Virus record (IMG/VR): IMGVR_UViG_3300037991_004722
Location: 1-64,000 of that record
DNA: 64,000 nt
From: an uncultured virus (IMG/VR IMGVR_UViG_3300037991_004722)
Lineage: Duplodnaviria > Heunggongvirae > Uroviricota > Caudoviricetes
Strand: one strand, 5' to 3'
Positions 27,701 to 62,844 of the stretch are shown here, one piece after another. Under the pieces are notes generated by a model. The model was not told where the DNA came from, made no database searches, and saw nothing but the letters and a program-made list of their open reading frames with translations. The translations under genes and the position numbers were made by a program. Position 1 is the first letter of the stretch. The number at the start of each line of letters is the position of its first letter.

Positions 27701-29201
27701 ATTTAAAACCGCATTTGCAGAAATGACTGCAGACCCAAACGTCCACAGGCGTATTTTGGATGAGTTTACGAAAGCAAATCCAAAAGAAACTGCAGCGCAA
27801 ATCGGTGGAACCATTGGTGGTCTTCTTGGTGCAGTTTTAGGTCCAACAATGGCAGCCAAGGGTGCGGCAGCAGGCGCTGCAGGGGGAATAACTCTTGGGT
27901 GGTTGCTGACTGAAAACAACGCATTTGACAAAGCGCACAGGTTTTATCGCGAAGTTGCAATCACCATTGATACATACCAGCGACTCAAAGTGTTCATGAA
28001 GGAGTTGGATTCCGGCCTTGATATTCCAGCAGCCTCGAAACGAACGCTTGAAACCAAACTTGACTATGGAAATATGACTAAAACTGAGATGAGCTATTTT
28101 CGAATGGCCTTCGCGTTTTGGACATATTTCGCTCAAGCAAATGGTTTGTTTGCGCGAAGCATTATTGAAAATCCAGATCGAGTAATCGCACAACTTAAGC
28201 TTGCTCGCTCAAGCCAAATAGCTGTGACCAAGGGCCAAGATCCAGACCGTGCGCTTGCGCCGTGGGATCGTTCCAGAATTTTCATTCCGTTTGAAATTGG
28301 TGGACATGCTGTTCGTCTTCCGTACACAAGTGTGGCGGACACCGTTCAACTGTTTATCGACTTCTTTGGTTTTTTTGGAATTGGATTTGGCCCAGAAGAA
28401 ACGACAACTGCACGAATGGCGGTCGTCAACCGGTTAAATCCACACCTTATCGAGGCGTTTAAGCAGACGTACAAAATGGATCCAGGCAGAGGATACGACC
28501 TCGAACGCGCCACCATGCAGGTTCCAGCATCATTAATTCAGTTGGATTACGACATTACTGGTGGGGTTTTGTGGGAAATGCTGGACATTAAATATGTCGA
28601 ATACGACGATTTGAAAAAGGGTTGGGGTTTTGATGAAAACACGGGTGTTCGATTCAACCCGAACAACTTGGAAATGCCTGGCCGTGGTATTTATGTAGCT
28701 CAAAACGCAGCGGCGTACAGCCTACTCATGGGCCTTGCTCAAACGCCGGTTACGGGTCGAATGGGCCGACTCTTTGAGGCTTTTGATCGATCGAATCTTG
28801 GACCTGTAGAGGCAGGAATGAAAGCTGCTGATGTGTACTACCAGGCAGATAAAGAGAAGCCTTTGTTGGCCCGCGTACCGTTCATGACTGAACTCGGCCT
28901 TGTAAAAGGAAGGCGCACCTCTGGGCTTAAGCGACCATCCGATTATGGTATTGGTGGATTAGACACTTCTACTGGTCGCAGATCTATGAGAGAGTATGCT
29001 CGACATATTGAGCCAGACGGAACTTCTTATATTTTGCCATACGATGATTTTTACCCACTGCCTTTATTGAAGATTTTTGGGGCCTCTGCTGTTTTTATTC
29101 AGCCAGAAGAGCGCAGTACAAACAGAAGCCTTAGAAAACAAACTACTGAGATTGAGAAAAATATAGAGCCTGCTATCCGTAAAGCTAAACTTCAAGAGTA
29201 A
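21762..29201 (+). CDS. giant (2479 aa) putative ejection protein
   Basis: uninterrupted ORF, two glycine-zipper hydrophobic segments, last gene of the ejection cluster. Confidence 0.6.
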   Translation: MAEQDDNTVEPPLEFDYGGLPAGAYQEGVPPGYAREDVFSLDKPVEYAQEDRDIAANAAYNSVYGVVSEEHPEADHSELRQRTLAALGGRKYVPGQTYGEEQYVFGDPLDSNLVFAPSVGQMVPRTGALGTIPIYKMQEEASANAMKGMRFDQQVRHMLFADPSPETMMTLKQAVDQRLVDSEGNIVRPPSVEEREYMPDNETLRQAATYVAGAGVGLGAVGGLAVLGPAGAVAGGLLGGMVGSGIGTIGVIGAAGFSSMPEDYTGFDGLQDLVKRTYTLIGFGDDLAGFMATSAPEARDLMVTNVVALAEGLGIAKSNEWLEENKITKLDDISKKGSESIKAIEKEIAKDFIPVGPSINPTFPLMPELGEGTIRKTVEEIGDNFILGLHEIIDEIGRSDEYKSMRSQVRKEFMMEKEIEYDLLSRKTKPTDEDWLGLNLFNQVSEGIATEEDIKPQVSGWIDNMSFNRLHPSLQGEMPNVQVFKTLAITIPPNHSMFSKDMPPNVAAAILAVHDGRSDDEIQNLVNTLPLGFLRNSPGFDVVIEKSLPDFEKVKEWATDTNTFLDEKTGARITRIFEREAFDLTQVPVYMEGHGTLYKRSKNAEIMNWAASIVTALNEIEIDLIPEFLEPLARNLGYPNDLYVPNSAGLDRQMQLGIRDYNLPYLVKLDARIKSGLGGPHLGMQEVARALGHNPDSFAYNFLSAYGFALENFNWERSILGGAARAGRTLWNVPYAYTGFKAAAPGYKLRAAKQNLLTNVSKDSSIDPVAAQHRLFEEILLAQMNKGANPLQDYDKKTGVGISTAQKQLLTDMMEIAGIEPEVVFAAFREASGDTIKLTAATEELVRKLGDNQVMVFRSSEQYGRLHSQLNEMVNEGLISPNDASVFLAQIETQAFKAANSPNTRFYSATEVIDGLELRIDRGIDEQETRLFLNAPEGDNRFTARDGILRSSFEYDENTGKRVISLFTRGDMGDLWSANADFMNSLMGQKFSQKLIGMFDHEVDDNGVRRLTATGAEQIGDSWQYYRRVKDLPNGYVARLFDELWITLHNFWSRLRKQRGVLPKQVRQFWDAEFGELPKDRRFVEGLVDAARRKKGKTIVVPGDELAEAQQARPRKVGMERVARQVAMDPDTLRSFLGQKTLTRVEVRTDPETGVQTRIPRRVYADFNYDPLDVGRKLLALIKVQPYRKMIAERSTATIGTGKYAVPVHRVGAVLEAAKRRLTDALGSLPDNLKSRMYQRNYQKSDKGFTELNNLQDVTEADINAFSERIRMEAGLPLHSKFQDVLEEIINTTEFIVLNARERAGFKTLVQELAANPAGDPIPSSLLDPNANLKIISIAEYNRVLQVAQDIEANPLNRIDRNSVHPGYYQTVIRSLKKRSVTALFGLLVEKVAPLFEAQAARINKKNADPALVAVWEQGMRRLAASPDEIAKAAESGKDKDFFDFYQRMVHSFTPRVALNNLKSLFDIVDELEGNKKRLDADALAAIREAEKEGTPPPLQFGSLDEFDIGVLYKKLNFIQEVLDGFYGMTRQERVAITNLRELSERRSGLTEAMSNADAAIAADALQILHTGLAEKKHYVTRTAREIMRRATGYTDPELPAGFDNSTVIDIYVALYTGNIVRLKAIATRMGFEGTWQANLVNLFGTRGEKLLREFGDTEAMLTNVLIYMKVDEVMFGIAKDLADLGYNTSVRELIGRQVESGVPSLDRQKFLDRVAEYINDEMQFQVGNVVGAGRLKKGEKISPAEKFGPLDNPHRTDLDSGIISKMDRDAKAEAARIVDRLGLRREMGQFARVLVGDDTFLLPEAMIEGLNDAINATYNMPSGFQTLFRDFGRTGTVEYRLNSENILPVKVQKLREILTMSKKAVELIAHPRVFYRRLLIGVGGIPMVPYMASLFVGGLSEIHLPQGAKAVVDNVVGAVQTPAMLAANKLSGQRVDFVAGVLARLYGNGSYRPLTRPHVTPDGRIFTADMVANNVDAYGFKTAFAEMTADPNVHRRILDEFTKANPKETAAQIGGTIGGLLGAVLGPTMAAKGAAAGAAGGITLGWLLTENNAFDKAHRFYREVAITIDTYQRLKVFMKELDSGLDIPAASKRTLETKLDYGNMTKTEMSYFRMAFAFWTYFAQANGLFARSIIENPDRVIAQLKLARSSQIAVTKGQDPDRALAPWDRSRIFIPFEIGGHAVRLPYTSVADTVQLFIDFFGFFGIGFGPEETTTARMAVVNRLNPHLIEAFKQTYKMDPGRGYDLERATMQVPASLIQLDYDITGGVLWEMLDIKYVEYDDLKKGWGFDENTGVRFNPNNLEMPGRGIYVAQNAAAYSLLMGLAQTPVTGRMGRLFEAFDRSNLGPVEAGMKAADVYYQADKEKPLLARVPFMTELGLVKGRRTSGLKRPSDYGIGGLDTSTGRRSMREYARHIEPDGTSYILPYDDFYPLPLLKIFGASAVFIQPEERSTNRSLRKQTTEIEKNIEPAIRKAKLQE

Positions 29202-49951: not shown

Positions 49952-50612
49952 TCATTCTTTACTTCTCGCTTCTCGTCTTTGGTTATCGATTCGCGTTCGG
50001 GCTTTTGATGCCAGCGTATGAAGACCTTGCTTCTGCGCTTCTCTCATTACAGTCCGAGGGTCGTACCCTTCGTCCACAAGCTTGGACCAGGGCACTCTCC
50101 TCTTGTGCAGTCGTTCATCAGTAAGGTCCATCACTCACCTTCCTTTTTGTATCTTCCAACTCGTTGCCAGCGGCGAACATTTGTAAGTTGGCGTTCCGCT
50201 TTGTCTAGCTCTCGGTCAATGTCAGTCCATTTCCGGGTTCGCTTTTTCTGAAGTTGATGAACTAAGTCCATCAATCGTTGTTCTTCTGCTTCCAACTCTT
50301 TGCGTGTGTGGTTTTTGCCGTCCTTGATCATCACTCACCTCGCTCGGCAGCGTATGATGCTGCGATGGTTGTCTGCTCAATCGGCGTAAGCTTGGCCCAC
50401 CAGTGGCCAGCTTTGTCGTCGTTGTCCAGTTCAAGACGACCATCCGGTGTCTCGACTGTGCCATTGGAACCGTCACCACCAAGCGGTGTCGGGTTCTTGG
50501 CATCACTGAGGATGTCCCACAGCTTTCGGTACAGGTCAGGCCCAATGCCGCTCAAGCATTCAGCTACCTCGTCAGCGGTCCAGTACTTCAATCCTTCTGG
50601 CATGTTCATCAC
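49952..50612 (-). CDS. three small coupled hypothetical genes (49952-50131, 50131-50331, 50331-50609)
   Basis: each starts at a GGTGAGTGATG junction. Confidence 0.65.
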
Positions 50613-51109
50613 TCACCTCCTTCTGGCCACCAAGACGGGGCCTCTGTTGTTCTGTTCCACTGGGCGAACCCAGCCTTCTCACCGATGTAGAACCGTCGAT
50701 ACGATTCAAAGACATCGTCACTCTTGTACTTGTCAGGCATGCACAACGGGTGCGCTGTGACCTTTCGAGACTTGAAGTCAGGACCACCAAGCCAAGCCAC
50801 GTCTTTGATTACTTTGCGGCAGTGACGAATGACGGCCTCGGATTTGTGGACCTTGCTGTACCGCTCAGTGTACTCGTTGGCTAAAGCCATGCCGTGCTCC
50901 CACAGCCACAGGAAGTTGCCCATGGTCTTACGAGCCCACACAGAGCACGGGTGGTTGACGTGAGTAGAAGCATAGGGCGTCTGCCCACCCAACTCGTTGA
51001 TAACTGTGCAGAGCATTTGTGCGCTCTCCAGGGTCATCTTTACTACGTGCCGGTCACACTGCATGCGTGCTGCGATGCCGGGGTCAGGGTGAAGTACAAA
51101 GATGTTCAT
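50609..51109 (-). CDS. pyrimidine-dimer DNA glycosylase/endonuclease V-like protein
   Basis: MNIFVL...CDRHVVKMTLESAQML...THVNHPCSVWAR. Confidence 0.75.
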   Translation of the reverse strand: MNIFVLHPDPGIAARMQCDRHVVKMTLESAQMLCTVINELGGQTPYASTHVNHPCSVWARKTMGNFLWLWEHGMALANEYTERYSKVHKSEAVIRHCRKVIKDVAWLGGPDFKSRKVTAHPLCMPDKYKSDDVFESYRRFYIGEKAGFAQWNRTTEAPSWWPEGGE

Positions 51110-51520
51110 CACTCACCTCCAAACGGTCTGCCGTGAATCTGACCCACCAACTCATCCGCTGCGTGGTTCCAACTGTCGTCGCACTGGTCCCAATGTGCAG
51201 CCAGTTGCTCTCTGATGAACTTAACGATCTCTGTTTTGTGGCCTCCAAAGTCAGGGTGCAACTCACCCACAAGGATGTTTGCAACCTGTTCGCGGTTCTC
51301 TTTTGTGTTCTTAGCCATCATTCACCTCCCTTTCTGCATCAAGAACGGCTTCGCTTTGGCAGTAGACGCAGACGAAGTACTCAGGCTCGACCTTGTTGAG
51401 GTTCTCAGTCAGGTCACGGTCACCGTCCACGGTCACGTTGATGGTGAACATGGGGCTGTCGTCCTTGTGGGACTCGCACTCAGGGTTGCTACATACGAGG
51501 GTCACTTGGCACCTCCCCAT
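51109..51520 (-). CDS. two small hypothetical genes (51109-51318; Cys-rich ~51311-51520)
   Basis: ORFs with SD junctions; CSNPEC and CVYC motifs. Confidence 0.5.
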
Positions 51521-52092
51521 TGGTCAGCCATGGCATCGGCGATGCCTTGGAATGTTTTGCTGCGAATCTTCCAACGATCTTCGGATGGCGGCAGGTTGTA
51601 CCACTCGGGTAGCGACCGACCGGACTTGGTCACATGGCGTGCTCCCTTGCCCACGACGTTGGTCGGCGTGAGATTTGGTAAGCCCTTGAGCCACAGACAC
51701 GTTGTCTTGGTTGCCTCGTGACCGTACTGCCATGGCTGGATAATCTGGTCAGGCTTGCGCCACTCAGTGGACATGATGCCGACCGGATTCTCAATGGCGA
51801 TCTTCGGGATGTTGGCATTGGCCAGCGCCATGAAGAAGTCGATGCCTTGCTGCTGGCGACCATCGGCACGCTTCGCTGCGAACCAACGAGCACCGCTCAC
51901 CGCAAGGTGCGTGCATGGTGGGAAGGCAATCATCATGTCCCAACCGTCGTCAAGGATGTCGAGCACCGAACCCTGATGGTGTGGACCAGGAACATCGGTG
52001 GGCAACAGGTCACACGACACAGCGTCATGACCCAGATTGATAAGGGCATCGCGGACTGCACCGCTGTATTCACATGCGACAAGCACTCTCAT
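51502..52092 (-). CDS. phage-type DNA cytosine-5 methyltransferase
   Basis: MRVLVACEYSG, SCDL, FPPC, IENP, RSKTFQGIA. Confidence 0.85.
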   Translation of the reverse strand: MRVLVACEYSGAVRDALINLGHDAVSCDLLPTDVPGPHHQGSVLDILDDGWDMMIAFPPCTHLAVSGARWFAAKRADGRQQQGIDFFMALANANIPKIAIENPVGIMSTEWRKPDQIIQPWQYGHEATKTTCLWLKGLPNLTPTNVVGKGARHVTKSGRSLPEWYNLPPSEDRWKIRSKTFQGIADAMADQWGGAK

Positions 52093-52825
52093 GATTTACC
52101 TCCGCTTGAAAGAGAGTCCATGGTCAGACCGATGACGGCCTCTACTGCCTCCCTCGCAGTATCGAACGAACTCTTTGGTGCATAGTCTTCGTCGTATTCC
52201 TCAACCTCAACCTTTGTTGCGCCATCGCGCTCCGCGTGCTCGGCCTCAAGCTCTTTGCGTAGCGCCTCCGTGCGGGCGACATAGGACTCCCACTGCTCGT
52301 TGGCGTTGACCGACTCAAGGCCGGTGACGATTACACTAAGGGCCGCAAGTCCAGCGCGTTGTTTTTCTTCAAAGCTTTGCGCTTTTTCGATTTCCCCCAG
52401 TGCCCGCTTGGCAGTGTTCAGGGCCAGCTTGGTCTCCAAAAGAAAGTTTACCGGGCTGGTGATTGGACTGAGACATTGTTTGCAGTTGTCACTCATTTTT
52501 GTTCTCCTGTGTTTGGTAAGTATGCCATAACCTGATAAAGGTCACGGTCAGATTATGTCCGGCTTTGCTCTTGAAGAAGGTCAACCAAGGTGTCAACCTC
52601 CCAGTCTGTAAGCTCAACCTCGACACGAATGTCCTTGTCTTGCCGGTGAGCAGAGATGACCTCAACGAATGCCCCCAGGCCAGCAGATTCTTCTGCTGGA
52701 AGGAACCTGCCAAAGACATCGATGATGTGCTCCTCCATCAACTCTCCCGTCTCCTCGTCTTCAATCTCACGGACCAACTCAATGGACACGTTGCATGGCT
52801 CCGTGGGCAGTTCGTTTCTTCTCAT
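52089..52825 (-). CDS. two hypothetical genes (52089-52496, 52553-52825)
   Basis: ORFs with SD sites. Confidence 0.6.
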
Positions 52826-52860
52826 CATTCACCTCTACTGTGTATCTGTCTGTGTATGTT

Positions 52861-52966
52861 TGGAGTCGGGGGCATCGCACCCCCGGAGAGTCGCTCGTGT
52901 CTTCTCCCCAGTGACCTGTAGGGCTGGAGGCTTTTAAGCGGAGCCTCGAACCGCACCCTCTCCCGG
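52861..52966 (-). ncRNA. candidate structured leader/sRNA with H-type pseudoknot
   Basis: GCGG-TTC-GAGGCT-CCGC-TTAAA-AGCCTC; GGAGAG/CTCTCC closing helix; CGGGGG-TGCGATG-CCCCCG hairpin. Confidence 0.55.
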
Positions 52967-52975
52967 TTTTACTGC

Positions 52976-53004
52976 TCTCTACCCAGTAAGGAACAGAGTG
53001 TCAA
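52976..53004 (-). promoter_or_regulatory. sigma70-type promoter
   Basis: CACAC-TTGACA-17 nt-TAGAGA. Confidence 0.55.
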
Positions 53005-53012
53005 GTGTGCCA

Positions 53013-54225
53013 CTACTCTACTGAAGTGTCGCGGTCTTCTTCAAGCATAAGGCTGTCGTCGTCGCGATGACCGAACCCAAGGCCTCTCGATGCCTTAAGC
53101 TCTCGAAGCAGAGTGTTGTTGTCAATCTTCCAAACTATCATGGTCTGAACCACGCTCCATCGATTGTCTGTGATGTGGTGAACCAAGTCACGGGGGCCGT
53201 GTGCAAGGTCGTAGTTGTCGTCCTCAGTGCGGACGTAAGGCTCATAAAAGTATGGTTGAAGCATCATGCCTCCATGGTTGGTGCTCACTCTTACAAACGA
53301 ATGGTGAGCAGTTTTCGGATATGGGTACGCTAAGTGGGCGGGTAATCCAGGCCCCCCGCCCTTACCGGCGCTATGACTTAGACCATTCGGTCACCTCCTT
53401 TGAGTGTTGCGGAGCGTCCTCGGCGTCACTCGGTTGATTGTTGGGTAGTGTTCGTTGTTCGGTCTCCCGGTACATTACCGTGCCGCACTCTCCGCATCCG
53501 ACATCGGTCCATGCTCTGAAGTTTACTGTGTATGTTTCGCCGCACTCGCATGTGATGTCGCAGATGTATTTTCCCGTGAATGGGTCATCATTGATTTTGT
53601 GAAACATATCGTAGAGGCGTTTCTTTCTTTTGTTTACCGGCGTCACCCGCACTCGTTTGAGTTCTTTGCTCCGGTCGATCTTTGAGAAACGCAAGTAAGA
53701 TTGGATGATGTATTTCATGTTGTTGCTCGTCTTGTGTTGGTGAAGCGGTGGTGCTTCATTAGGGAGCACGAAGCCCAGCCGCGATGGCAACGTCGACGTG
53801 TGCAGGCATCAGGTCAGGGAACCTGCACACACCCTTCATGTAGGCCTGCTCAAGCACGGCGGTCTCCAACCGCCGACGCTCTACCAGCCTGACCACCTTG
53901 GCGAGGTTCTCGTCGCTGAGTGTTCTGCGACCATTGAACCAATCGACCAACATGTCGAGGGGTTTGTTGTCCACCTCAAACGCAGGGGGCATCACGCACC
54001 CGTCGCACTTTCCGCACTTCTCCATCACTCACCTCCTTCGTCTTTGGTGCGCTGCCAGGCAGCAAATACATCGCCAAGAGTCTTGCCTTCCGGGTATGAC
54101 TGCGCGAGATAGTCCTCAGCACGCAGCCCTTTCTGCGGCGTGTCCGAGTACGGGGCACTGGCATCATCATCATTCCAGTCACACTCATCGTGAATGGTGA
54201 GATCGTTTTCGTCTGGTGTGAGCAT
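53013..54225 (-). CDS. four small hypothetical genes (53013-53267, ~53371-53718, 53759-54025, 54025-54225)
   Basis: co-oriented ORFs, some with CxxC pairs. Confidence 0.5.
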
Positions 54226-54920
54226 TACTCACCTCTCAGTTTCTTGGTGTTGCCTTGCGAGTCGATGCCCGCGCTCAGGTTCATACTCTTTCCGGCATCG
54301 TAGCCAGCGGCACTGTGGCCGTACTCACTCGAAGCCTTTGCGCTGCCGAATGAGAAGTTGCTGTCCACCCACTCGCTCACCGCTTGACTGCGGCTGCGGA
54401 CCAAGGCAAAGCCCTGCACGTTGTCGCGCTCGGCATCCTTGCGGATGTGGTACAGCTTGTGCCTCAGGCCATCCACTGCGCTGCGCCGGAAGTTGTTGCC
54501 GAGTGTGCGCTTGCCCGGCATGCCAGCAGGAAACTGGCTCGTGTACTCACGGGCCTGGTTCTCAATCTGGCGCTCGCAGATAGAATACAGGTACTTCATC
54601 AGTTCAATGTCAGTGCGGTGCCCGTAGATGTGCAAGGTCTGGCCAATGTGGTGGCCTGACAAGTAGGCCATGCGGCAGTTGCAGTGTTGCGCGATGGCGT
54701 TGGCAAGGAGCCTGCGCCACACACTTGAACGGGTCTGAATGCTCTGCTGCTCCATTGGGTCATGTTCAGCAGCACGGTCCACGTCGATGCTCGCCATGTC
54801 GATGGCGTGGGCGGCCATCATTCGGCTGGCGAGCTTCGCGGCGGTCTCCCCCTCAGGGGTGCCGTCTTGGTTCCGGGCGAGGCGCATCAGCTTTTCAATC
54901 TTGGCAATGATTGGGTTCAT
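54225..54920 (-). CDS. DUF2786-family protein
   Basis: KIEKLMRLA...PEGETAAKLASRMMAAHAI. Confidence 0.8.
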   Translation of the reverse strand: MNPIIAKIEKLMRLARNQDGTPEGETAAKLASRMMAAHAIDMASIDVDRAAEHDPMEQQSIQTRSSVWRRLLANAIAQHCNCRMAYLSGHHIGQTLHIYGHRTDIELMKYLYSICERQIENQAREYTSQFPAGMPGKRTLGNNFRRSAVDGLRHKLYHIRKDAERDNVQGFALVRSRSQAVSEWVDSNFSFGSAKASSEYGHSAAGYDAGKSMNLSAGIDSQGNTKKLRGE

Positions 54921-55087
54921 CGCTTGCCTCCTTGGGTGTTGATGGATTGCAGGAGAGCGTCATACGTCTTCTGGTTTCCGATGATGTCTCGCTCTTTACG
55001 AGTCAGGTGTTGAAAGTTGTCGGACACGTCCTCCAATGAGTACCGGAGCAGCGCGTCCTTGATTGCGTTCAGTTCTTGTTGGGTCAT
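54917..55087 (-). CDS. hypothetical 56-aa protein
   Basis: MTQQELNAIKDALLRY..., GGAG SD, ATGA overlap. Confidence 0.6.
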   Translation of the reverse strand: MTQQELNAIKDALLRYSLEDVSDNFQHLTRKERDIIGNQKTYDALLQSINTQGGKR

Positions 55088-55140
55088 GATTCTCCCTTAA
55101 CCGGTTCGGTGAAGTATGGCAAGTGTGCAGTTGATGGTGA

Positions 55141-55162
55141 AGGAAAGCCCCCCGAAGGGGGC
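55141..55162 (-). terminator. UUCG hairpin terminator
   Basis: GCCCCC-TTCG-GGGGGC-TTTCCT. Confidence 0.65.
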
Positions 55163-55169
55163 GGTTGGT

Positions 55170-57223
55170 TTACTCCTCACCGGATTCGGCGAGCATGTCG
55201 GCGAAAGCACGAGCCCAGCAGAGAAGAATCTCGCGGTGGCTCAGAGGCTGCTCGACCCCGTCCTTCGGTTCCTTCCATGGCAGGACTACCCAAGGGTTCT
55301 GTTGGATGCGCTCCCAAGTGTCGGAAGTCAGGAATGCGAACGACCAGCCAGGGTTGTCGGGCGCGGTGACCATGACGCTGCTTTCAGGATGCTTGCCAAA
55401 GGTGAACAGTGCCGATGCGTCGGGATGCTCGAAGCTCACACCATGGCGAGACATTTGAAGGCGGGACTTGCGGAAGCCCAGCTTGCTGAGCCGAGCGGAC
55501 ATTTGACGATTTGTGATGGGTTTGATGGGACACCTCCTGTGTGTCTGGGGTTGGTTGGTTTGCCTCTCACCCTACAGAACGAGAGGGATTATTCTCATGG
55601 ACATAGGTCAGTAGTCGTACCCGTCGATGGGTCCGTCTTCGACGGAGTCGAGTTGAGGAAGCGTAAGCTCCTGCGGGCATCCGCTCTTGCACACTGGCTT
55701 CCCATCGTGGATCTCAATCCAGTCTCCGCACTTGCGGCACTTATCTTCGACCTCGACCATGGTCGGGTTGGGCATGTGGCACTTGCGGCACACATGCAGG
55801 TCACCCCAAAATGTATCGTAAGCGTTGCAGCATTCAGTCAACAGCATCACTCACCTCCTTTAGAGAAGCCGGCGTCCTTGGCGAGGTCCCATGCAGCGTT
55901 TCGCAGGTCCGCTTCAGCCTGTGTGTCATGTCTCGGTTCTTTACCGAAGACTTCAACCCACGCGTCAAACATCGCCATGTTGGAATCCCACTTTTCGTGA
56001 GTCGCGCAACAGCCGTGTCGGTAGTCAGTCGTTGGCAGTGCCGCGTATTTCTTGTTCTGCTCATCAATCCATCGCAACTGGCTATCGGTGCCCCACGTTT
56101 GGATGACACGAATGAATGCATTCGCGAGTTTCTGTACGTCTTCCATCACTCACCTCCCTTGCTAAGTCGTACGTCTGAATGTTTGCTAAATGCGATGATG
56201 AATGGGGCGGCCATGAACAACGGCAGCGCCATGCAGAAGAGGGTGTGAAGGTCGTTGGGGTCAATCATTTGTTGCTCCGGTTGGGGGCTTGCGCCCCAGG
56301 TTGAGGGTTCACCCTTGGGGGCACTTGGTTCCTTGCGTTGTCTCCCACTCGCGGCAGCCTTCGCAGATGTAGCCGCCGTCGATTCGGCTCGTGGCGTTGA
56401 AGGCGATGGGCTCAAGCAGTGGGTTGCTGCACCCTTCGGTGGTGCATCGGAACTGGTGGGTGTGGTTGAACTTGACGATACCGGCAGCGATGGCCGCGGC
56501 CAGTCGGGTATTGTCTCGTGGGTAAAGCATGTTTGCTCCTGTGGGGCACGGGGCCCCGGTTCGGGTTGAGGGTTTAGGCGGTTCGGTTTCTTGCTTCTTC
56601 AAGCAATGCCGCGAGTTCTTCCATGGTCCAGTCTGGCGTCGGTCCTCCGGGCATTAGTCCTCCTCGATGACCGTTACGGTCACGGTGTCGGGGTCGGCCT
56701 CGCAATACTCGCTGACGTTGTCTTCAAGGGCTGGCTCGCCACGACCGATAGCCGCGACGACGCGAGCCTTGAGGGTCTCGGGGTCAATGTTTGTGTCAAA
56801 GTCAATGGTGATTCGGATGGTGTCCATGGTATTTGCTCCGGTTGAGGGTTAGGCGGGTTCGACTGCGGTTGCCCAGCGAAACAGTGGCTCAGGGAGGAAG
56901 CCGCCTGCCCTGAGGTGTTCGGCCATCTCATACAATGATTGGTAGCGGTCACGATTCTGCCCTCGGTGATTCCTTTCATAGCAGGCGTCATACGAGAAAT
57001 ACTTGGCGAATGACGGCTGGCTCTCGTGAATCAAGACAAGCACGGCATTCTCCCCGAGAGTCTCTCCCCGGTTGCGCCACTCCTCACCGGAGAGAAACGT
57101 GACACCCTCCAAGTTCAGGTCCGGTTCGATGGAGGCGATGCGCTCAACGATGCGCGTGGCAGCTTTGAGTGAGTCGCCGGCCAAGTGCGACAGGTTGGCG
57201 GTTCGGATGGTCGATGGAATCAT
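55170..57223 (-). CDS. run of small early genes (55170-55502, 55608-55847, 55847-56146, 56146-56268, 56309-56530, 56574-56654, 56654-56827, 56849-57223)
   Basis: most have a GGAG/GGAGGTGA SD and are bounded by repeated junctions. Confidence 0.6.
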
Positions 57224-57268
57224 GGTTGCTCCGGTTAAATGGTGGGGCGCGGGGCCCCGGTTGAGGGT

Positions 57269-57715
57269 TTAGTAGCCAGCGGCTACAGCGTTGGCGTCGT
57301 AGTACTCGTGGCTGTCCTCGGTCCATTCGGGCCAGCCGGGTTGTTTTTCCCAAGTGGTCACACACGCGTGGGCAGTGGTGCCGTCGTAGTCGGTGAATGC
57401 TTCCCACCGTTCACCAGTCGGGCGGTTCACTGTCGCCGATCGAAGCCTGTCCACAGGGCAGAACTGGACGAACTGGTTGGACATGTAGCCATCGCAGTCG
57501 CTGCCTTCATTGAAGTAGGTGCGGGTGACTTGTTGGCCGTCGTAGGTCCACTCGATGATAGTCCGGTCGTAGCCCTCATCGGTGGGCGTGAATCGGTGGT
57601 GGCGCAAGGTCTGGTCGGGCTTCAGTTCGATGACGACATCGCCGCCGTTCACGTAGTCCTTGAATCGCACCTTGGTGGGAAGTTGCAACATGACTGTACA
57701 CATTCGCATTTTCAT
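57269..57715 (-). CDS. hypothetical early protein
   Basis: 148 aa; PTDEGY...DCDG motifs; GGAG SD. Confidence 0.7.
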   Translation of the reverse strand: MKMRMCTVMLQLPTKVRFKDYVNGGDVVIELKPDQTLRHHRFTPTDEGYDRTIIEWTYDGQQVTRTYFNEGSDCDGYMSNQFVQFCPVDRLRSATVNRPTGERWEAFTDYDGTTAHACVTTWEKQPGWPEWTEDSHEYYDANAVAAGY

Positions 57716-57757
57716 GGTCGCTCCAATGGGGCGCGGGCCCCGGTTGTGGGTTGGGGT

Positions 57758-57841
57758 TTAGTGGCGCGGTGTTCCACAGCAACGGCAGCGTGTGCGGGTT
57801 CCGCTGTTTACTGCTCCGCACTTGAAGCATTTCCAGTACAT
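57758..57841 (-). CDS. 27-aa RanBP2-type zinc-finger microprotein
   Basis: MYWKCFKCGAVNSGTRTRCRCCGTPRH fits W-x-C-x2-C-x3-N-x6-C-x2-C; GGAG SD; bounded by cassette repeats. Confidence 0.8.
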   Translation of the reverse strand: MYWKCFKCGAVNSGTRTRCRCCGTPRH

Positions 57842-57876
57842 GGGGTCTCCAATGGGGCACGAGGCCCCGGTTAGGG

Positions 57877-58581
57877 TTAGGAAGCGTTGCGTTTGGGCCA
57901 TCGACCCGTCTTACCGTCTACCAGTTGCCAAAACGTCTGACAGTCGAACTCCACCCAACCAAGGTCGACCGCACCCTGAAGAACTTCCTGGGGTGTTTTG
58001 CCTTCGGAGTATGTGGGAAACTCGCGGATATCGAACTTCCATGCGTTTGGGCGCGGGTCCATGGTGAAGAAATACGCGGACGGCAACGTGTAGTCGTCGT
58101 CGATGTACGTGTGGTAGATGTTGTATGGAATCACCTGTTGCAGCCCTTCGGGGTGGTCGTCGTATTGACGGACGATGCAAGCAAGGTCGGGGGCCATATA
58201 TTTTTTCAGCCAAGGCATGGGTCGCTCCGGTGATGATAGTGGGGCACGGGGCCCCGGTGAGGGGTAAAGGGTTTACGAGTGGGCCAGTGCGCTACCAAAG
58301 GCGCGATACCATGCGACACAAAGCGGATTCGAGAGTTCAGCTTCGGGCACAGTCCAGTCAACGGGCGCGGCATCCTGAGCATGCAATGCCGCTGCGCGTA
58401 TCTTCGCGAGGCTCGCTTGGACGTTGTACACGCTCGCAGGCATGGCCTTGCCGCTGTCTACGTGAGTGAGGCTGTAGATGCTGCGGCTGCCGGTGATAAC
58501 CAGACCAGCTACACCTGAGGGGCGAGCCCGCACGGTATCAACGCCGCGCGGTCCATCGGTCGCAATTTGAACTGTCTTCAT
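57877..58581 (-). CDS. two hypothetical early genes (57877-58218, 58273-58581)
   Basis: GGAG SD and repeat-bounded. Confidence 0.65.
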
Positions 58582-58608
58582 GGGGTCTCCAGAGTGAGGG
58601 GTGAGGGG

Positions 58609-59310
58609 TTAGGCCGCGCGCTTGGTAGCCTTGCCGGGGCTGTGGTCGATGAAGCCAACGACCGGGCCCGCTTTGGAGCCGTCGCACAACCGGCAGGTGT
58701 TGCAGGTTACAATCTCGGGCTGCAGTTGAGCCGGGCAAACGATGCCCCGGTTGCCATCGGGGGTGTCAAAGGTCCGGCCCTCGAAGTCTTCGGGCAGTAC
58801 AACCACGGCCCGCCACCCGTCCGCAATGGCGGCATCGGCCTGCTCCATCGTCTCGCATGAGGCCATGATATGACCCTTCCAACGCTTCGCAATGTCCATG
58901 GCCCACCCGTGGGTGTAGCCAACCAAGGCGAGCCCTTCGTCCCTGACGGCCTTGCGAATGTACGCCCCATCAATAGGGGAGAGGGCCGCCGGGTCGCCGA
59001 TGGAGCCGAGCCGAACCATGCGAGCGGCCCGCGATGCATTGGCCAGCGCACCCCGGAGGCTGTACCGCTTACCCTTTGCGTGAGCCTTGACCATCGCGGC
59101 ATGCGAGAACGACGGGGTCCCATGCTGCGAATAGCAAAGGGGCTTATCTCCACCGCCCTCACCGCCGTGCTTTTTGTGCAGCAACGGACAGCCGACGGCG
59201 CGGCATGAGTCCAGCGATTCCTCACGGGTTGCCCCGATGGCAATGGTCGGGACGTTGCCTGTCTTGATGTTCTTGGTGGTAGCGGTCGCGAGGTAAGAGG
59301 GGAAGGGCAT
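58609..59310 (-). CDS. Cys-rich phage protein (gp88-like, possible Fe-S/radical-SAM-related)
   Basis: NIKTG, SC..GCPL, CYS, RLGSIGD, GYTH, IVCPAQ, TCNTCRLC. Confidence 0.6.
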   Translation of the reverse strand: MPFPSYLATATTKNIKTGNVPTIAIGATREESLDSCRAVGCPLLHKKHGGEGGGDKPLCYSQHGTPSFSHAAMVKAHAKGKRYSLRGALANASRAARMVRLGSIGDPAALSPIDGAYIRKAVRDEGLALVGYTHGWAMDIAKRWKGHIMASCETMEQADAAIADGWRAVVVLPEDFEGRTFDTPDGNRGIVCPAQLQPEIVTCNTCRLCDGSKAGPVVGFIDHSPGKATKRAA

Positions 59311-59332
59311 GGGTGCTCCGGTGGTTTGTGGT

Positions 59333-59503
59333 TTAGTTACGGTCCCAAAGAACTTCGACAAGCGCGCCAAACAAGTGGACCGAGAGGTAGCCGACCTCTT
59401 CATGCGGGGCGTCGAAGTTGTGAAATACGCCGAAGGGTGTTCGGCCTTTGGTGGGTCCATATGAAAGAAACGTGAGACGCGAACCGAAAAGGTTGATGGA
59501 CAT
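59333..59503 (-). CDS. first early gene, 56 aa
   Basis: CCGGAGC SD then MSINLFGSRLTF. Confidence 0.6.
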   Translation of the reverse strand: MSINLFGSRLTFLSYGPTKGRTPFGVFHNFDAPHEEVGYLSVHLFGALVEVLWDRN

Positions 59504-59799
59504 GAGGGCTCCGGTGGCCCGTACTGTGGGCCAGTTGTCCCCCCTTTTTGGACAGCGAAAAGTAACGGGGGGAACGGGGTTTATTTGAAATGGCCTAACC
59601 GTCCTGTACCTTTTTCTAAAAAAAGTAAACGGGTATACGGTAAGGGTAGAAAGGGAATTTCGGGGGATTGAAAAGGTTCGGCAATAGGTACGGGACGGTT
59701 GGGACAAATCGAGATTGTGCAGGTTTACCCGTGGGTTTTCGTGGGTCCATGGTTCGGGACAGTTTGAACACTTGGCACACCCCTCCGGTTTACGTACAT

Positions 59800-59828
59800 C
59801 ACTTAACCACGTTCGCCGGGTATGGCAA
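59800..59828 (-). promoter_or_regulatory. leftward early promoter
   Basis: CCTGCCCCCC-TTGCCA-17 nt-TAAGTG; same 16-mer as at 61082-61097. Confidence 0.6.
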
Positions 59829-60077
59829 GGGGGGCAGGGTTCAGGACAGGGTACGGGACACGGGGGCCAAAGACCCGCCGAAACTCACCGGGAACCGGAC
59901 AGAATCTGTCACGGGGGAGGGTGCGTCTGGTCGCGCGGGTCGTTCGCGGTCGTTTTTAAAACCCCATCGGCTTAGCCATATCCAAGGTTACAAGCCGGAT
60001 ATCACGCGCCGGGGTTGACAGGTCAAACGAACCGCTGAGGTATCACGCGAGGGTTGAGATTGAGGCCCGACGGACGG

Positions 60078-60109
60078 AAAAAACCGCGTCAGTCTGAGCT
60101 AACCCGCGT
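60078..60109 (-). terminator. intrinsic terminator closing the large RNA
   Basis: CGCGGGTTAG-CTCAGA-CTGACGCGG-TTTTTT. Confidence 0.6.
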
Positions 60110-61005
60110 TGCCCCTGCATAGTTCGCGGGTGTTGTACGGGTTCCGGGTGAATGCCCCCCAACGGTCAAGCGTTCCGGGGGCGGTAGAGGTCCGCCACGC
60201 GCCGGGCTCAAACCCCCTCGAAACGCAGGGGGAGCCCAGGCGCGGGCTATGTAAACGTGCGCCCTGTGCTATCGGCGGTGCCAGCCCGGACGCCCGACTG
60301 ACTGCGTACCCTGAGCGTGTCCCCGTCAGGGAAGGGTAATGGTGAGGAGAGGGGGCCCCTAAGCCCCGTCTTCCAGTACTTGCGTTCGAACCATTAGGGT
60401 GATTCTACTAACGTACCGCTGTCATTTGATACGCTCCATAGCGTGCCCCCACGAGGGGCCGGGGATTCGAACCCCGCGTCTGTTGACTGCCTCAAAAAGT
60501 GGCGGTGATTTTCGCGCTCACCGGGGCGCACTGCTACCCGTGGCCACGGCACACGGGGCCCCCGGATATCGCACCGGGGCGGGCGGCTCGTTTTTTAGAC
60601 TGTGGAGAGCTATCCACCGGCCTTGTTTAGGTGGCCCCTTTAGCGGGGCCGGGTATCGGGTCCCCCTCGCGTCAGGCTATGCCGCCGGGGGTCATGGTGT
60701 CAGGTGTCTTCAATCACCTATGCACATGGGTGGACTCTTCACCGATTCGGCTCACCCGCTTGCTGGGGTCGTGGCCACTTGACGCTCCTACCTTCGCTCC
60801 TGCTGTCGCTCACTTGAGCCCCGACCGTGGCCGGGTTCCTCGCTCGTGTTGTTGCTTGGCTTCGCTTGTGACTTTCAGCGGGCGACAGAGTCCTCCCCTT
60901 AGTTGTCATCGGTGGCCGGGTTCGTGTGCCCGGCTTGCGCCTCGGAATGCTTTGGCCCTGCAGGCCGCCGCTGATTCGAGTTTGCACCCATTGTCTTATT
61001 CGAGA

Positions 61006-61017
61006 TTTGAAAGAGCG
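61006..61017 (-). promoter_or_regulatory. boxA antitermination element
   Basis: CGCTCTTTCAAA about 35 nt after the predicted start site. Confidence 0.65.
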
Positions 61018-61058
61018 TGTCTGGTTTGTTTCCGGGGTGTTTCCCTTTCCACACAAAC

Positions 61059-61087
61059 AGCTTATGGCCGTATGACAGGTGTGGCAA
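61059..61087 (-). promoter_or_regulatory. sigma70 promoter driving the large RNA
   Basis: TTGCCA-17 nt-TAAGCT. Confidence 0.75.
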
Positions 61088-61270
61088 GGGGGGCAGGCAA
61101 AGAAAGTTTGCTAAATCCAGTGAAAACCAAGGTTGAACCTCGATTATCGCTGGTGAAAAAAAATCTGATTTTGTGCCGTTTTTTTTCTATTCGCTGCACT
61201 CGCGTGCGCGTGGTTCCTTTTATGCCCCCCCCTTTTTCTGGTTTTCTTTGGTTTTTTCCCCTTGCCCCCC

Positions 61271-61299
61271 TTGACGGGTGTGGCGGGTGTGACTAAATA
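61271..61299 (+). promoter_or_regulatory. rightward promoter
   Basis: TGCCCCCC-TTGACG-17 nt-TAAATA. Confidence 0.55.
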
Positions 61300-61305
61300 C
61301 CGTGT

Positions 61306-61635
61306 ATGACTTTGACTCTCGCCTTTCGCGGCCTCGCCGCAGACTCCCCCCGACAGCGCGCCCGTTGCTCTGTTACGGGTCGTTTCGTGGCATGGGTCAA
61401 GGCCGCCGCGCTCCGCGTTGCAGGTGCCCCCCGTGTGGTGGTGGTGCCGTCTACCGTGGAACCCGATACCGCCGATGCTGCCCCCGTGGTGGCCCCCGTG
61501 GTATCCGTGGCCGCCGCTATCGCTGCCCCCGTGGTAGCCGTTGCGCGTGCCGTTGCTGCCCCTGTGGTGGCCGTGGCGTCAACTATCATCGCTCGCGTGG
61601 GGCGGTGGTTTCGCCGTGGGGGGTGTACCGTGTGA
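61306..61635 (+). CDS. possible leaderless Ala/Val-rich protein with APVV repeats
   Basis: ATG 6 nt after the -10 box, no SD. Confidence 0.45.
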   Translation: MTLTLAFRGLAADSPRQRARCSVTGRFVAWVKAAALRVAGAPRVVVVPSTVEPDTADAAPVVAPVVSVAAAIAAPVVAVARAVAAPVVAVASTIIARVGRWFRRGGCTV

Positions 61636-61832
61636 AGCGTATGCCATGGCCGCAACCGACCGCCCCCCGTGGTTTTTTGTGGCGCNNNNNNNNNNGGGGG
61701 GGGGGGGGGGGGTGGTGCGTCTCGCTTCCGCTGCTGCCGAAGGCGTCCCCCCCGTGGATTCGTTTTGTTTTTCGTCTCGGGCCGCGCTGGGTTCCCCCCT
61801 GGGGTTTTACGGAAAATAGAGATAATCGGCTA

Positions 61833-61861
61833 TTGACGGACACCTTTCGCAGACATAGAAT
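61833..61861 (+). promoter_or_regulatory. sigma70 promoter
   Basis: TTGACG-17 nt-TAGAAT. Confidence 0.8.
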
Positions 61862-61878
61862 CGGCATTCGAGGTATCA

Positions 61879-62844
61879 ATGAATAAATACGTGTGTTTGG
61901 CTCATCGCTTTCCTGCGGCGGGTATAGAAGGTGTTCTTGGGGTTCCAGTACAGAGCGAGGCCGAAATAGAAGAATACAGGTCTCATATGGATGACGTATC
62001 GCCGAATCAGACCATCAGGTTTGTTCGTCTGACATCAATACCGGACCATGCGAATAAGCATCTGAAAGCAGGTGACGTAGTGGTCAAATACGAGGGACTG
62101 AGCGAGAAGTTTCTTGATGTTCTTCGTCCAGTAGAGACTGCGTACCTGCTCAGTAAGTACAAGGCCGGGGATATTGATTGGGAGCATGCGGAGGACATTC
62201 GTCGTTATTCGTTGGAGAGCTTTCAGTGGCAGCTTGGCTCAGATGGATACCAGTTGGCGATATCGGACCCGCATGGTCGTCTTGTTGTTTTGAGGGCGCA
62301 TCACGGTACTCCGAGGCGTCTTTTTCCGACTGCGTACAGCATCTTGCAGGAAACAGAGAACGACAAGAAGCTTGTGGCGGATGATCCGTATATTGGTCGT
62401 CGTGTGTCGGTTTCTCACAAGCAGAAGTGTGCATGGGCGACAATGCGCTTCATTCACTACTACTTGTTGAAGTATGGCCCGATTGTGGACTCAAGCGTTC
62501 TGTATGAGTTTAAGAAGAAGATACGTCGGCACAATCGCGTATACAGCGACTTACCTAAGTTTGAATTTGCTAACTTTGTTCGTCTGCATACTCGCAGGAC
62601 GCACAAGCATTCTCAGGACTTTTGGCGTCGAGTGCGCGTAGAGTACCTGGAAGATCCTGACTCATTGCCGCGACCGTTGTCGTTTATTGCGTCGAAGCGT
62701 TCTGTGCGCTGGGTTCGTCTGACTATGGAGGAAGTTGATCAGGTATTGAACCATGTTGAGTGGGATGAGTGGAACGAGTTCAGGGATCCGCTTCACTTCT
62801 CGAATGTTCGAAATAATTCATCTGGATCTGCGGAGTGGAACTGA
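61879..62844 (+). CDS. hypothetical protein
   Basis: 321 aa, GAGG SD, upstream promoter. Confidence 0.7.
   Translation: MNKYVCLAHRFPAAGIEGVLGVPVQSEAEIEEYRSHMDDVSPNQTIRFVRLTSIPDHANKHLKAGDVVVKYEGLSEKFLDVLRPVETAYLLSKYKAGDIDWEHAEDIRRYSLESFQWQLGSDGYQLAISDPHGRLVVLRAHHGTPRRLFPTAYSILQETENDKKLVADDPYIGRRVSVSHKQKCAWATMRFIHYYLLKYGPIVDSSVLYEFKKKIRRHNRVYSDLPKFEFANFVRLHTRRTHKHSQDFWRRVRVEYLEDPDSLPRPLSFIASKRSVRWVRLTMEEVDQVLNHVEWDEWNEFRDPLHFSNVRNNSSGSAEWN

Follow-up and report, generated by a model that had tools for sequence, protein, structure and literature searches.

A candidate large structured RNA of ~565 nt heading the early genes of an uncultured marine phage

The IMG/VR virus record IMGVR_UViG_3300037991_004722 is 73,969 bp long and is rated complete, and we analyzed its first 64 kb (64,000 nucleotides, called the window below). 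On the minus strand of the window, at the head of the early genes, lies a region whose conserved core of ~565 nt (61058-60494) is very likely a genuine structured RNA element. Sequence comparison suggests, with about an even chance in our judgment, that this core is a stand-alone, highly structured non-coding RNA belonging to a new family. By the same comparison, the family is so far confined to a small clade of uncultured marine phages. The initial annotation of this DNA had proposed a new large structured RNA of the phage, encoded on the minus strand at the head of the early region. The covariation found in seven homologues and the lack of an Rfam match agree with that proposal, but the length and the bounds given to the RNA had to be changed.

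Covariation and fold of the conserved core

The family consists of seven distinct sequences, including that of the window, and these represent about five lineages. The six other sequences come from viral and marine metagenome contigs and are 82-93% identical to the core of the window (92-93% for L012, L014, L015 and L016, 84% for L107, and 82% for L002). L011, which is the same phage (99.7% identical), and L013, which is close to L002, were not counted as distinct. The alignments were made with MAFFT from sequence alone and were not fitted to structure, and the consensus pairs were predicted by RNAalifold.

In the six-sequence alignment, 149 pairs were predicted, 16 of which were compensatory, and 99.3% of the cells were paired. 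The seven-sequence alignment gave 141 predicted pairs, of which 20 were compensatory (34 cells), with 98.2% of the cells paired. When the 3' partners in this alignment were slid by 1-3 columns as a control, there were 0-2 compensatory pairs and 34-42% of the cells were paired. The observed covariation score was reached by none of 500 shuffles of the seven-sequence alignment. That is, the covariation among homologues, which the initial annotation had named as a check, was found. Of 1001 cells, 942 were Watson-Crick pairs, 41 were G·U, 9 were A·C and 9 were other combinations. Because G·U exceeded A·C, an RNA read from the minus strand is favored.

The comparison showed a multi-domain predicted fold, in which a long-range helix closes a domain of ~270 nt and several hairpins are accompanied by an H-type pseudoknot at the 3' side. 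The positions of these elements and of the other features of the region are shown in Table 1. In the long-range helix, 7 of the 13 pairs are compensated in L002. Both crossing helices of the pseudoknot, which had already been read in the initial annotation, covary. All of its 10 pairs are formed in all seven sequences (70 of 70 cells), compared with 10-54% when the partners were slid, and each helix has one compensated pair: pair 545/560 is AU in three sequences, GC in three and GU in one, and pair 554/568 is UA in five and CG in two. The loop of helix 1 forms the 5' strand of helix 2 and both helices have been kept in evolution, as is expected of an H-type pseudoknot.

Table 1. Features of the RNA region and its surroundings (positions of the window)
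Feature	Position	Strand	Remark
Sigma-70-like promoter P1: TTGCCA, 17 nt, TAAGCT	61059..61087	-	Read in the sequence
Conserved core of the structured RNA	60494..61058	-	~565 nt, common to all seven homologues
5' hairpin GGG-AAACA-CCC	61034..61048	-	Near the presumed start; in 7/7 sequences
BoxA-like motif GCTCTTTCAAA	61006..61016	-	10/11 match to GYTCTTTAANA; invariant in 7/7 sequences
Long-range helix, 5' strand	60978..60994	-	Pairs with 60737-60724; encloses a domain of ~270 nt
Long-range helix, 3' strand	60724..60737	-	Pairs with 60994-60978
Hairpin GGCCCC-GCTAAA-GGGGCC	60633..60650	-	Covariation
Hairpin GTGGA-TAGCTC-TCCAC	60602..60617	-	Loop contains the palindrome AGCU
H-type pseudoknot, GCGC..GCGC crossed by CGGTGA..TCACCG	60503..60529	-	Both helices covary
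T5 run, possible 3' end	60494..60498	-	Four bases after the pseudoknot
Variable segment, type B in the window	60262..60493	-	0-235 nt across phages
Perfect tRNA T-arm motif GGGGTTCGAATCCCC	60460..60476	-	Inside the variable segment of the window
Conserved 3' hairpin GCGCCTGGGCTC..GAGCCCGGCGC	60195..60246	-	Preceded by conserved ACATAGCC
Hairpin plus T6, unconvincing terminator	60078..60109	-	T6 at 60083-60078
Promoter-like P2: TTGCCA, 17 nt, TAAGTG	59800..59828	-	Heads the protein-coding early genes
Small gene, 109 aa	61306..61635	+	Across the divergent control region from the RNA

The other helices named in the initial annotation fared differently from one another. The hairpin GGCCCC/GGGGCC is well supported: at pair 424/433 the combinations C-G, G-C and U-A occur in two sequences each and A-U in one, and pair 422/435 is CG in six sequences and UA in one. 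The helix GCGCCTGGGCTC..GAGCCCGGCGC, which lies downstream of the core, was also borne out; it has 18 predicted pairs, 4 of them compensatory in six sequences, and its minimum free energy (MFE) is -35.8 kcal/mol (z -3.47), with none of 200 shuffles folding as well. For the proposed knot GTGGA-TAGCTC-TCCAC..GAGC, the GTGGA/TCCAC stem covaries (pair 454/467 is CG in six sequences and UA in one) and its loop is invariant; the pairing of the loop GCTC with GAGC is invariant in all sequences and hence gives no covariation signal either way. The helix GGCGG/CCGCC was not kept, as its 3' strand is changed to CCACC in L012 and L015 and has no counterpart in L002 and L013. The knot of GGCCAC/GTGGCC with GGTCG/CGACC was likewise given up, since it conflicts with the local hairpin CCCGGC-CACG-GUCGGG, which covaries. 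The pairing TACCCT/AGGGTA lies in a segment found only in the phage of the window, and so falls outside the comparison.

The hairpins at alignment columns 219-248, 229-244, 300-312 and 347-367 are among the best-supported elements. The 5' hairpin is longer in L002 (GGGGG/CCCCC) and in L107 (GGCGGGG/CCUCGCC), and it shows no strict compensatory change. Six 4-bp candidates for additional pseudoknots were found, none of which was convincing.

Non-coding nature and relation to known RNAs

When the variable columns of the alignment were divided by codon phase, the counts were 40, 48 and 44, so that there is no codon periodicity. All 17 of the listed indels between homologues are of 1 or 2 nt. These two results indicate that the region is a non-coding RNA. 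Two ORFs overlap the region, one of 105 aa (minus strand) and one of 221 aa (plus strand). No ORF is common to the homologues, and each of them has its longest ORF in another frame and of another length; the three longest ORFs of the region gave no match in Pfam. The statement of the initial annotation that the stretch holds no credible SD-led ORF is in keeping with these data.

The homologues were obtained in several ways. Three related viral contigs were reached with the downstream DUF7227 protein as a query. L002 contains a copy of 61105-60485 that is 82% identical; the other two, L003 and L004, are uninformative on the RNA, because they stop 1.2-1.8 kb upstream of the gene in common. A scan of metagenomes with a 19-mer gave 7 loci, 6 of which were true homologues. 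The remaining one, L017, was dropped as a chance match of 21 nt in coding DNA. Scans of viral contigs with two 15-mers gave 71 and 14 loci, and searching these with an nhmmer profile added a single new contig (L080, L103 and L107). Two long motifs of the RNA used as queries found the contig of L002 only, and two further motifs found only the two known contigs. The DNA contigs of four further sequencing runs contained the same lineages, with break points at 60496-60501. No RNA run was among the sequencing runs listed as carrying the sequence. A 20-mer had 2 matches in 185,579 species genomes, both of them due to chance (20-26 nt), and no homologue was found there. In a collection of 50,697 phage records, no match was found by blastn of 59500-61900 or by megablast of 1-25000.

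The initial annotation could not match the RNA to a known family, and our search agrees with this: Rfam 15 gave no match at gathering scores in the whole window on both strands. The families covered include GOLLD, ROOL, OLE, HEARO, RNase P, tmRNA, 6S, and group I and II introns. In E-value mode (E up to 10), the region 59300-61950 gave 5 chance-level matches with E of 0.71-7.9. They were 26 to 63 bits under the gathering score and none was a large-RNA family. ARAGORN at default thresholds found no tRNA or tmRNA gene in the 64-kb window.

Two regulatory roles were considered and rejected. An antisense regulator of phage genes was rejected because complementarity to the rest of the 73,969-bp genome never exceeds 12 nt, and a CsrA-type (GGA-rich) sponge was rejected because GGA occurs 10 times against 13.6 expected. 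The RNA is composed of only 12% U, and A makes up 26%.

We found no description of this RNA in the literature. To our knowledge, few non-coding RNAs are large and intricately folded, and a function has been assigned to hardly any of these. Such classes amount to a handful, for example OLE, GOLLD, ROOL and raiA. The present RNA is longer than ~500 nt, has no ORF, contains many covarying helices and is borne by a phage, and in these respects it is of the kind of large ornate phage RNAs, which implies no homologous family. It resembles ROOL and GOLLD in its length of several hundred nt, its phage origin, the lack of an ORF, its many covarying helices and pseudoknots, and in that a function is unassigned. 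This likeness is one of kind and not of homology, because the Rfam models do not match: neither the ROOL nor the GOLLD model was matched even at E up to 10. Unlike these RNAs, it stands at the head of the early region and not beside a tRNA island, in a phage without tRNA genes in the 64-kb window. In addition, it is known from seven closely related sequences only.

Further likenesses concern the parts of these RNAs. According to one report, ROOL and GOLLD each contain a linker of poor conservation, in which GOLLD sometimes carries tRNAs, and symmetric kissing loops of OLE and GOLLD are reported to contain AGCU among other tetranucleotides (PMC12286853). The present RNA is similar in having a variable segment of 0-235 nt between conserved parts, with a T-arm-like motif in the version of the window, and an invariant AGCU palindrome in a hairpin loop.

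Two other cases are worth comparing. Vibrio phage ICP1 makes a non-coding transcript of ~800 nt from an ORF-less space of ~1 kb, with no function assigned (PMC7567579). It is similar in that a large RNA comes from an ORF-less space, ICP1 being a lytic phage. However, the ICP1 transcript was defined by RNA-seq and lies beside lysis genes, whereas the present RNA is defined by covariation, and the blastn search of the phage records showed no sequence similarity. Fremin et al. (2023) predicted candidate structured RNAs of IMG/VR viruses (PMC10690425), that is, by comparative prediction on the same kind of viral contigs, but their candidates are 29-151 nt long compared with ~565 nt here. Three core motifs, each written as DNA letters and two of them also as RNA letters, were not found in the six searchable supplements of that survey, files 1, 2 and 4 being outside the search. 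A fragment of the RNA may therefore appear in those three files.

If the RNA is indeed a further class, it would offer an independent case for asking what large RNAs do for phages. Its assets are the promoter-proximal place at the start of the early region, a compact architecture supported by covariation and a built-in variable linker. Its length of ~565 nt is still manageable for chemical probing and cryo-EM; its narrow distribution and the lack of a cultured host slow its study.

Boundaries of the RNA and competing readings

The 5' boundary was taken from the putative promoter P1. Its hexamers, TTGCCA at 61087-61082 and TAAGCT at 61064-61059, are present as the initial annotation had stated, but their score is low, as described below. 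Similarity between the lineages starts at the -10 element: upstream of it they have almost nothing in common, and downstream they are 82-93% alike. The aligned promoter of L012 (TGGACA-17-TATATT) scores 10/12 and was flagged by the promoter scan as the sole promoter-like match in 1.5 kb. At the aligned place in L002 and L107, the hexamers are weaker by eye and were not flagged by the scan. The boxA-like motif, with GCTCTTTCAA at 61016-61007, lies ~45 nt from the presumed start.

The 3' boundary differs among the phages. A run of T5-6 follows the pseudoknot in the window, L016, L002 and L107, so that the site at the core end is terminator-like in four of the seven sequences. The terminator scan flagged it in L002 and L107 (CGGCGAGCGCGTAATCGCCG, then CCCCTTTTT) and not in the window, which has a loop of 9 nt and a gap of 4 nt from the stem to T5. 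In L012, L014 and L015, TTTACAT stands in place of the T run and is followed directly by the conserved ACATAGCC and the 50-nt hairpin. ACATAGCC was not found on reading the sequence of L107.

Between the core and the 3' hairpin lies the variable segment, which is absent in L012, L014 and L015, is replaced in L002, L016 and L107 by a different and well-conserved module of ~125 nt, and in the window is ~235 nt of its own. The initial annotation had described an element of ~975 nt. What is common to all homologues is only the core, and the next 0-235 nt are variable; judging from the sequence, the 975 nt may be a read-through form in the phage of the window. The 3' end had been placed at a hairpin plus T6 (60109-60078). 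We do not retain this terminator, as it was not flagged by the scan, the predicted hairpin ends ~15 nt before the T run (z -0.18), and the T6 run is shortened to T4 in L012 and to T3 in L015.

In the stand-alone reading, these elements would work as follows. As soon as infection begins, host RNA polymerase would start at P1, which lies in the divergent control region. Many transcripts of most lineages would stop at the U run after the pseudoknot, and read-through would append the variable linker and the second conserved hairpin. The RNA would then act as a folded particle, either binding a host or phage protein or assembling with itself. Its action would be neither by base-pairing to a phage message nor through an encoded peptide.

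Several results weigh against the stand-alone RNA or limit its support. All members of the family are at least 82% identical and come from about five lineages. Since they are such close relatives, the compensatory cells count sequences and not independent events, and much of the compensatory count is contributed by L002 and L107. The outer helix, in which the 5' end pairs with CCACCTAAAC, is perfect in six of the seven sequences and has 5 of 10 pairs in L107, and RNAalifold gave a different outer pairing after L107 was added. At the 5' end, the P1 hexamers of the window score 8/12 and were not flagged by the promoter scan. At the 3' end, the RNA of L012, L014 and L015 must continue downstream, because there is no U run after the pseudoknot. 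As for folding energy, the MFE of the 975-nt stretch has a z-score of -0.93 and 2 of 20 dinucleotide shuffles fold as well, and the 565-nt core has a z-score of -1.01 with 19 of 100 such shuffles folding as well; the opposite strand of the 975-nt stretch gave -1.89. The initial annotation had named folding no better than dinucleotide-shuffled controls as a sign against the RNA, and on this one count the result went against it. The case is thus wholly comparative, because folding energy alone is no better than that of shuffled controls.

The strongest competing explanation is a cis-acting leader, which we regard as possible with a distinctly lower probability. In this reading, a long early transcript would begin with the RNA, which would act on the polymerase transcribing it, by boxA/Nus recruitment or by put-like processive antitermination, so that terminators and Rho sites are read through into the 20-kb early operon. 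GYTCTTTAANA is the gamma-proteobacterial boxA consensus, and Nus factors on BoxA block Rho-dependent termination in rRNA operons, at lambda nut sites and in suhB (PMC5725501). The present RNA is similar to those leaders in carrying a GCTCTTT-type motif close to where a long untranslated transcript begins, and the invariance of this motif in all seven sequences speaks for the leader. The absence of the U run in L012, L014 and L015, the conservation of ~70% that continues from the core all the way to P2, and the common orientation of the RNA and the early genes also fit it.

On the other hand, the boxA that the initial annotation had reported is indeed present and invariant, but the motif is one mismatch off the consensus and such matches occur in the window at the chance level (11 against 7.47 expected), and this gamma-proteobacterial consensus may not be that of the host. 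No boxB-like partner was identified here. A separate promoter-like P2 with operator-like repeats immediately precedes the early genes of the window, L002 and L107; its aligned sites were flagged in L002 (TTGACA-16-TAAACT) and L107 (TTGACA-17-TACAGT), each scoring 10/12. Moreover, the first gene downstream of the RNA in L107 is unrelated, with no similarity, and the RNA is kept there. Known antitermination RNAs are ~70-120 nt long, which is far below the length of the core. Taking these points together, we think from the sequence evidence that a stand-alone RNA is more likely than a leader.

The stand-alone RNA might be refined, not replaced, by supposing that it is the RNA half of a ribonucleoprotein. 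Its partner would be the small arginine-rich 109-aa protein, with which it would form one conserved module; we consider this rather unlikely. The 109-aa gene lies opposite the RNA in every lineage with upstream sequence (the window, L012, L014, L015, L016, L002 and L107), whereas the gene downstream of the RNA is not kept in L107. The gene is real, as the indels between relatives are multiples of three, and the version of L107 is 165 aa. Both termini of the protein are conserved and basic (PRQRARC..TGRFVAWVKAAALR at the N-terminus and GRWFRRGGC at the C-terminus), with A/P/V-rich repeats between them. However, adjacency among closely related phages is weak evidence, and the protein had no Pfam or PHROG family and no usable Atlas match.

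We also speculate, with little confidence, that the RNA may be a third, independent phage RNA class forming a protein-free homo-oligomeric particle like ROOL and GOLLD. By analogy, the core would be the shell, the AGCU loop would make a symmetric kissing contact, and the linker, with a tRNA-like arm in the phage of the window, would be displayed or enclosed. The RNA would be the first product of infection.

Very unlikely, in our view, is a replication transcript that primes or activates a nearby origin in the manner of the primer RNA II of ColE1. This plasmid RNA primes replication and is similar in length to the core. The RNA lies in a 2.4-kb control region with an AT-rich stretch (61150-61190), GCCCCCGTGGTG repeats (61472-61579) and TGTCCC repeats. 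The GCCCCCGTGGTG repeats, however, are inside the 109-aa gene, where they code for APVVA repeats. The sequence that follows the core has a high G+C content and differs between phages, and no origin feature was identified in the analyses of the region. Finally, it is hardly credible that the region is protein-coding or otherwise unstructured and merely seems structured owing to high G+C and close relatedness: the two overlapping ORFs and the non-significant MFE z-scores are all that favor it, and it is contradicted by the indels, by the lack of codon periodicity, of a shared ORF and of Pfam matches, and by the 20 compensatory pairs against 0-2 in slid controls of the same alignment.

Surrounding features and the phage genome

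The variable segment has coordinates 325-458 in L016, 4716-4945 in L002 and 1560-1806 in L107, being absent, type A or type B according to the phage. A direct repeat, CCCCTTT...CCCCTTTAC, borders it in L016, and a copy of 60342-60497 occurs in other surroundings on a contig of run X7. These observations suggest that the segment is a mobile or exchangeable module. Its T-arm motif may be a tRNA remnant or mimic, and it belongs to a segment that is absent from three of the seven homologues. No recognizable tRNA or tmRNA was found around GGGGTTCGAATCCCC by ARAGORN at default settings, and a weak tRNA-Sec-like Rfam match in the segment had an E-value of 0.71. At the 80% threshold, the output of ARAGORN consisted of two tmRNA calls that overlapped each other ("Tag not identified") and of poor tRNA calls. 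We rejected a tRNA or tmRNA reading of the segment because these relaxed calls were inconsistent and were gone at 90%.

A second copy of the P1 motif, CCCCTTGCCAYACC, occurs at 59832-59819, at P2. On the minus strand (59687-59860 and 59530-59560), TGTCCC(G)NACC repeats flank P2, and downstream of P2 there is an inverted repeat, TGTCC..GGGGGGACA. The TGTCCC motifs and the inverted repeat are conserved in L012, L015 and L002, and they are probably operator sites for a phage regulator. On the other side of the RNA, a promoter-like TTGACG-17-TAAATA ends 7 nt before the ATG of the 109-aa gene, and the message of this gene may be leaderless.

The RNA region is within a stretch of 2.4 kb (59461-61878) that carries a single small gene. 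Structural genes run rightward to ~38 kb and early genes leftward from ~59.5 kb, and the RNA is oriented as the early genes. Pfam and PHROG matches in the genome include terminase, major head protein, SU10-type adaptor, M23 peptidase and RecT, as well as YqaJ, a helicase, a VapE-type primase, SSB and RusA. The terminase, major head protein, SU10-type adaptor, RecT and RusA matches indicate that the record is a tailed phage. No close cultured relative was found, the best cultured terminase match being only 28% identical. The genome is circularly permuted, since a DUF5872 gene is split across both ends of the contig.

Giant ORFs are present in the window (21762-29201, plus strand, 2479 aa) and in L018 (1115-7846, plus strand, 2243 aa). 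They are nearly without family matches, the sole one being a weak match to DUF5591 under the cut-off. At 61687-61712, 10 N are followed by G17, which represents an assembly gap or a masked stretch adjoining a homopolymer. This stretch lies between a terminator-like site (61658-61674, plus strand) and a promoter-like site (61833-61861, plus strand) that precedes the gene for a 321-aa protein; this protein, used as a query, found no homologue. The G+C content is ~47% in the structural half and increases to 53-63% in the early region (50000-62000 of the window). Therefore, the RNA lies within a broadly G+C-rich block and does not form an isolated island.

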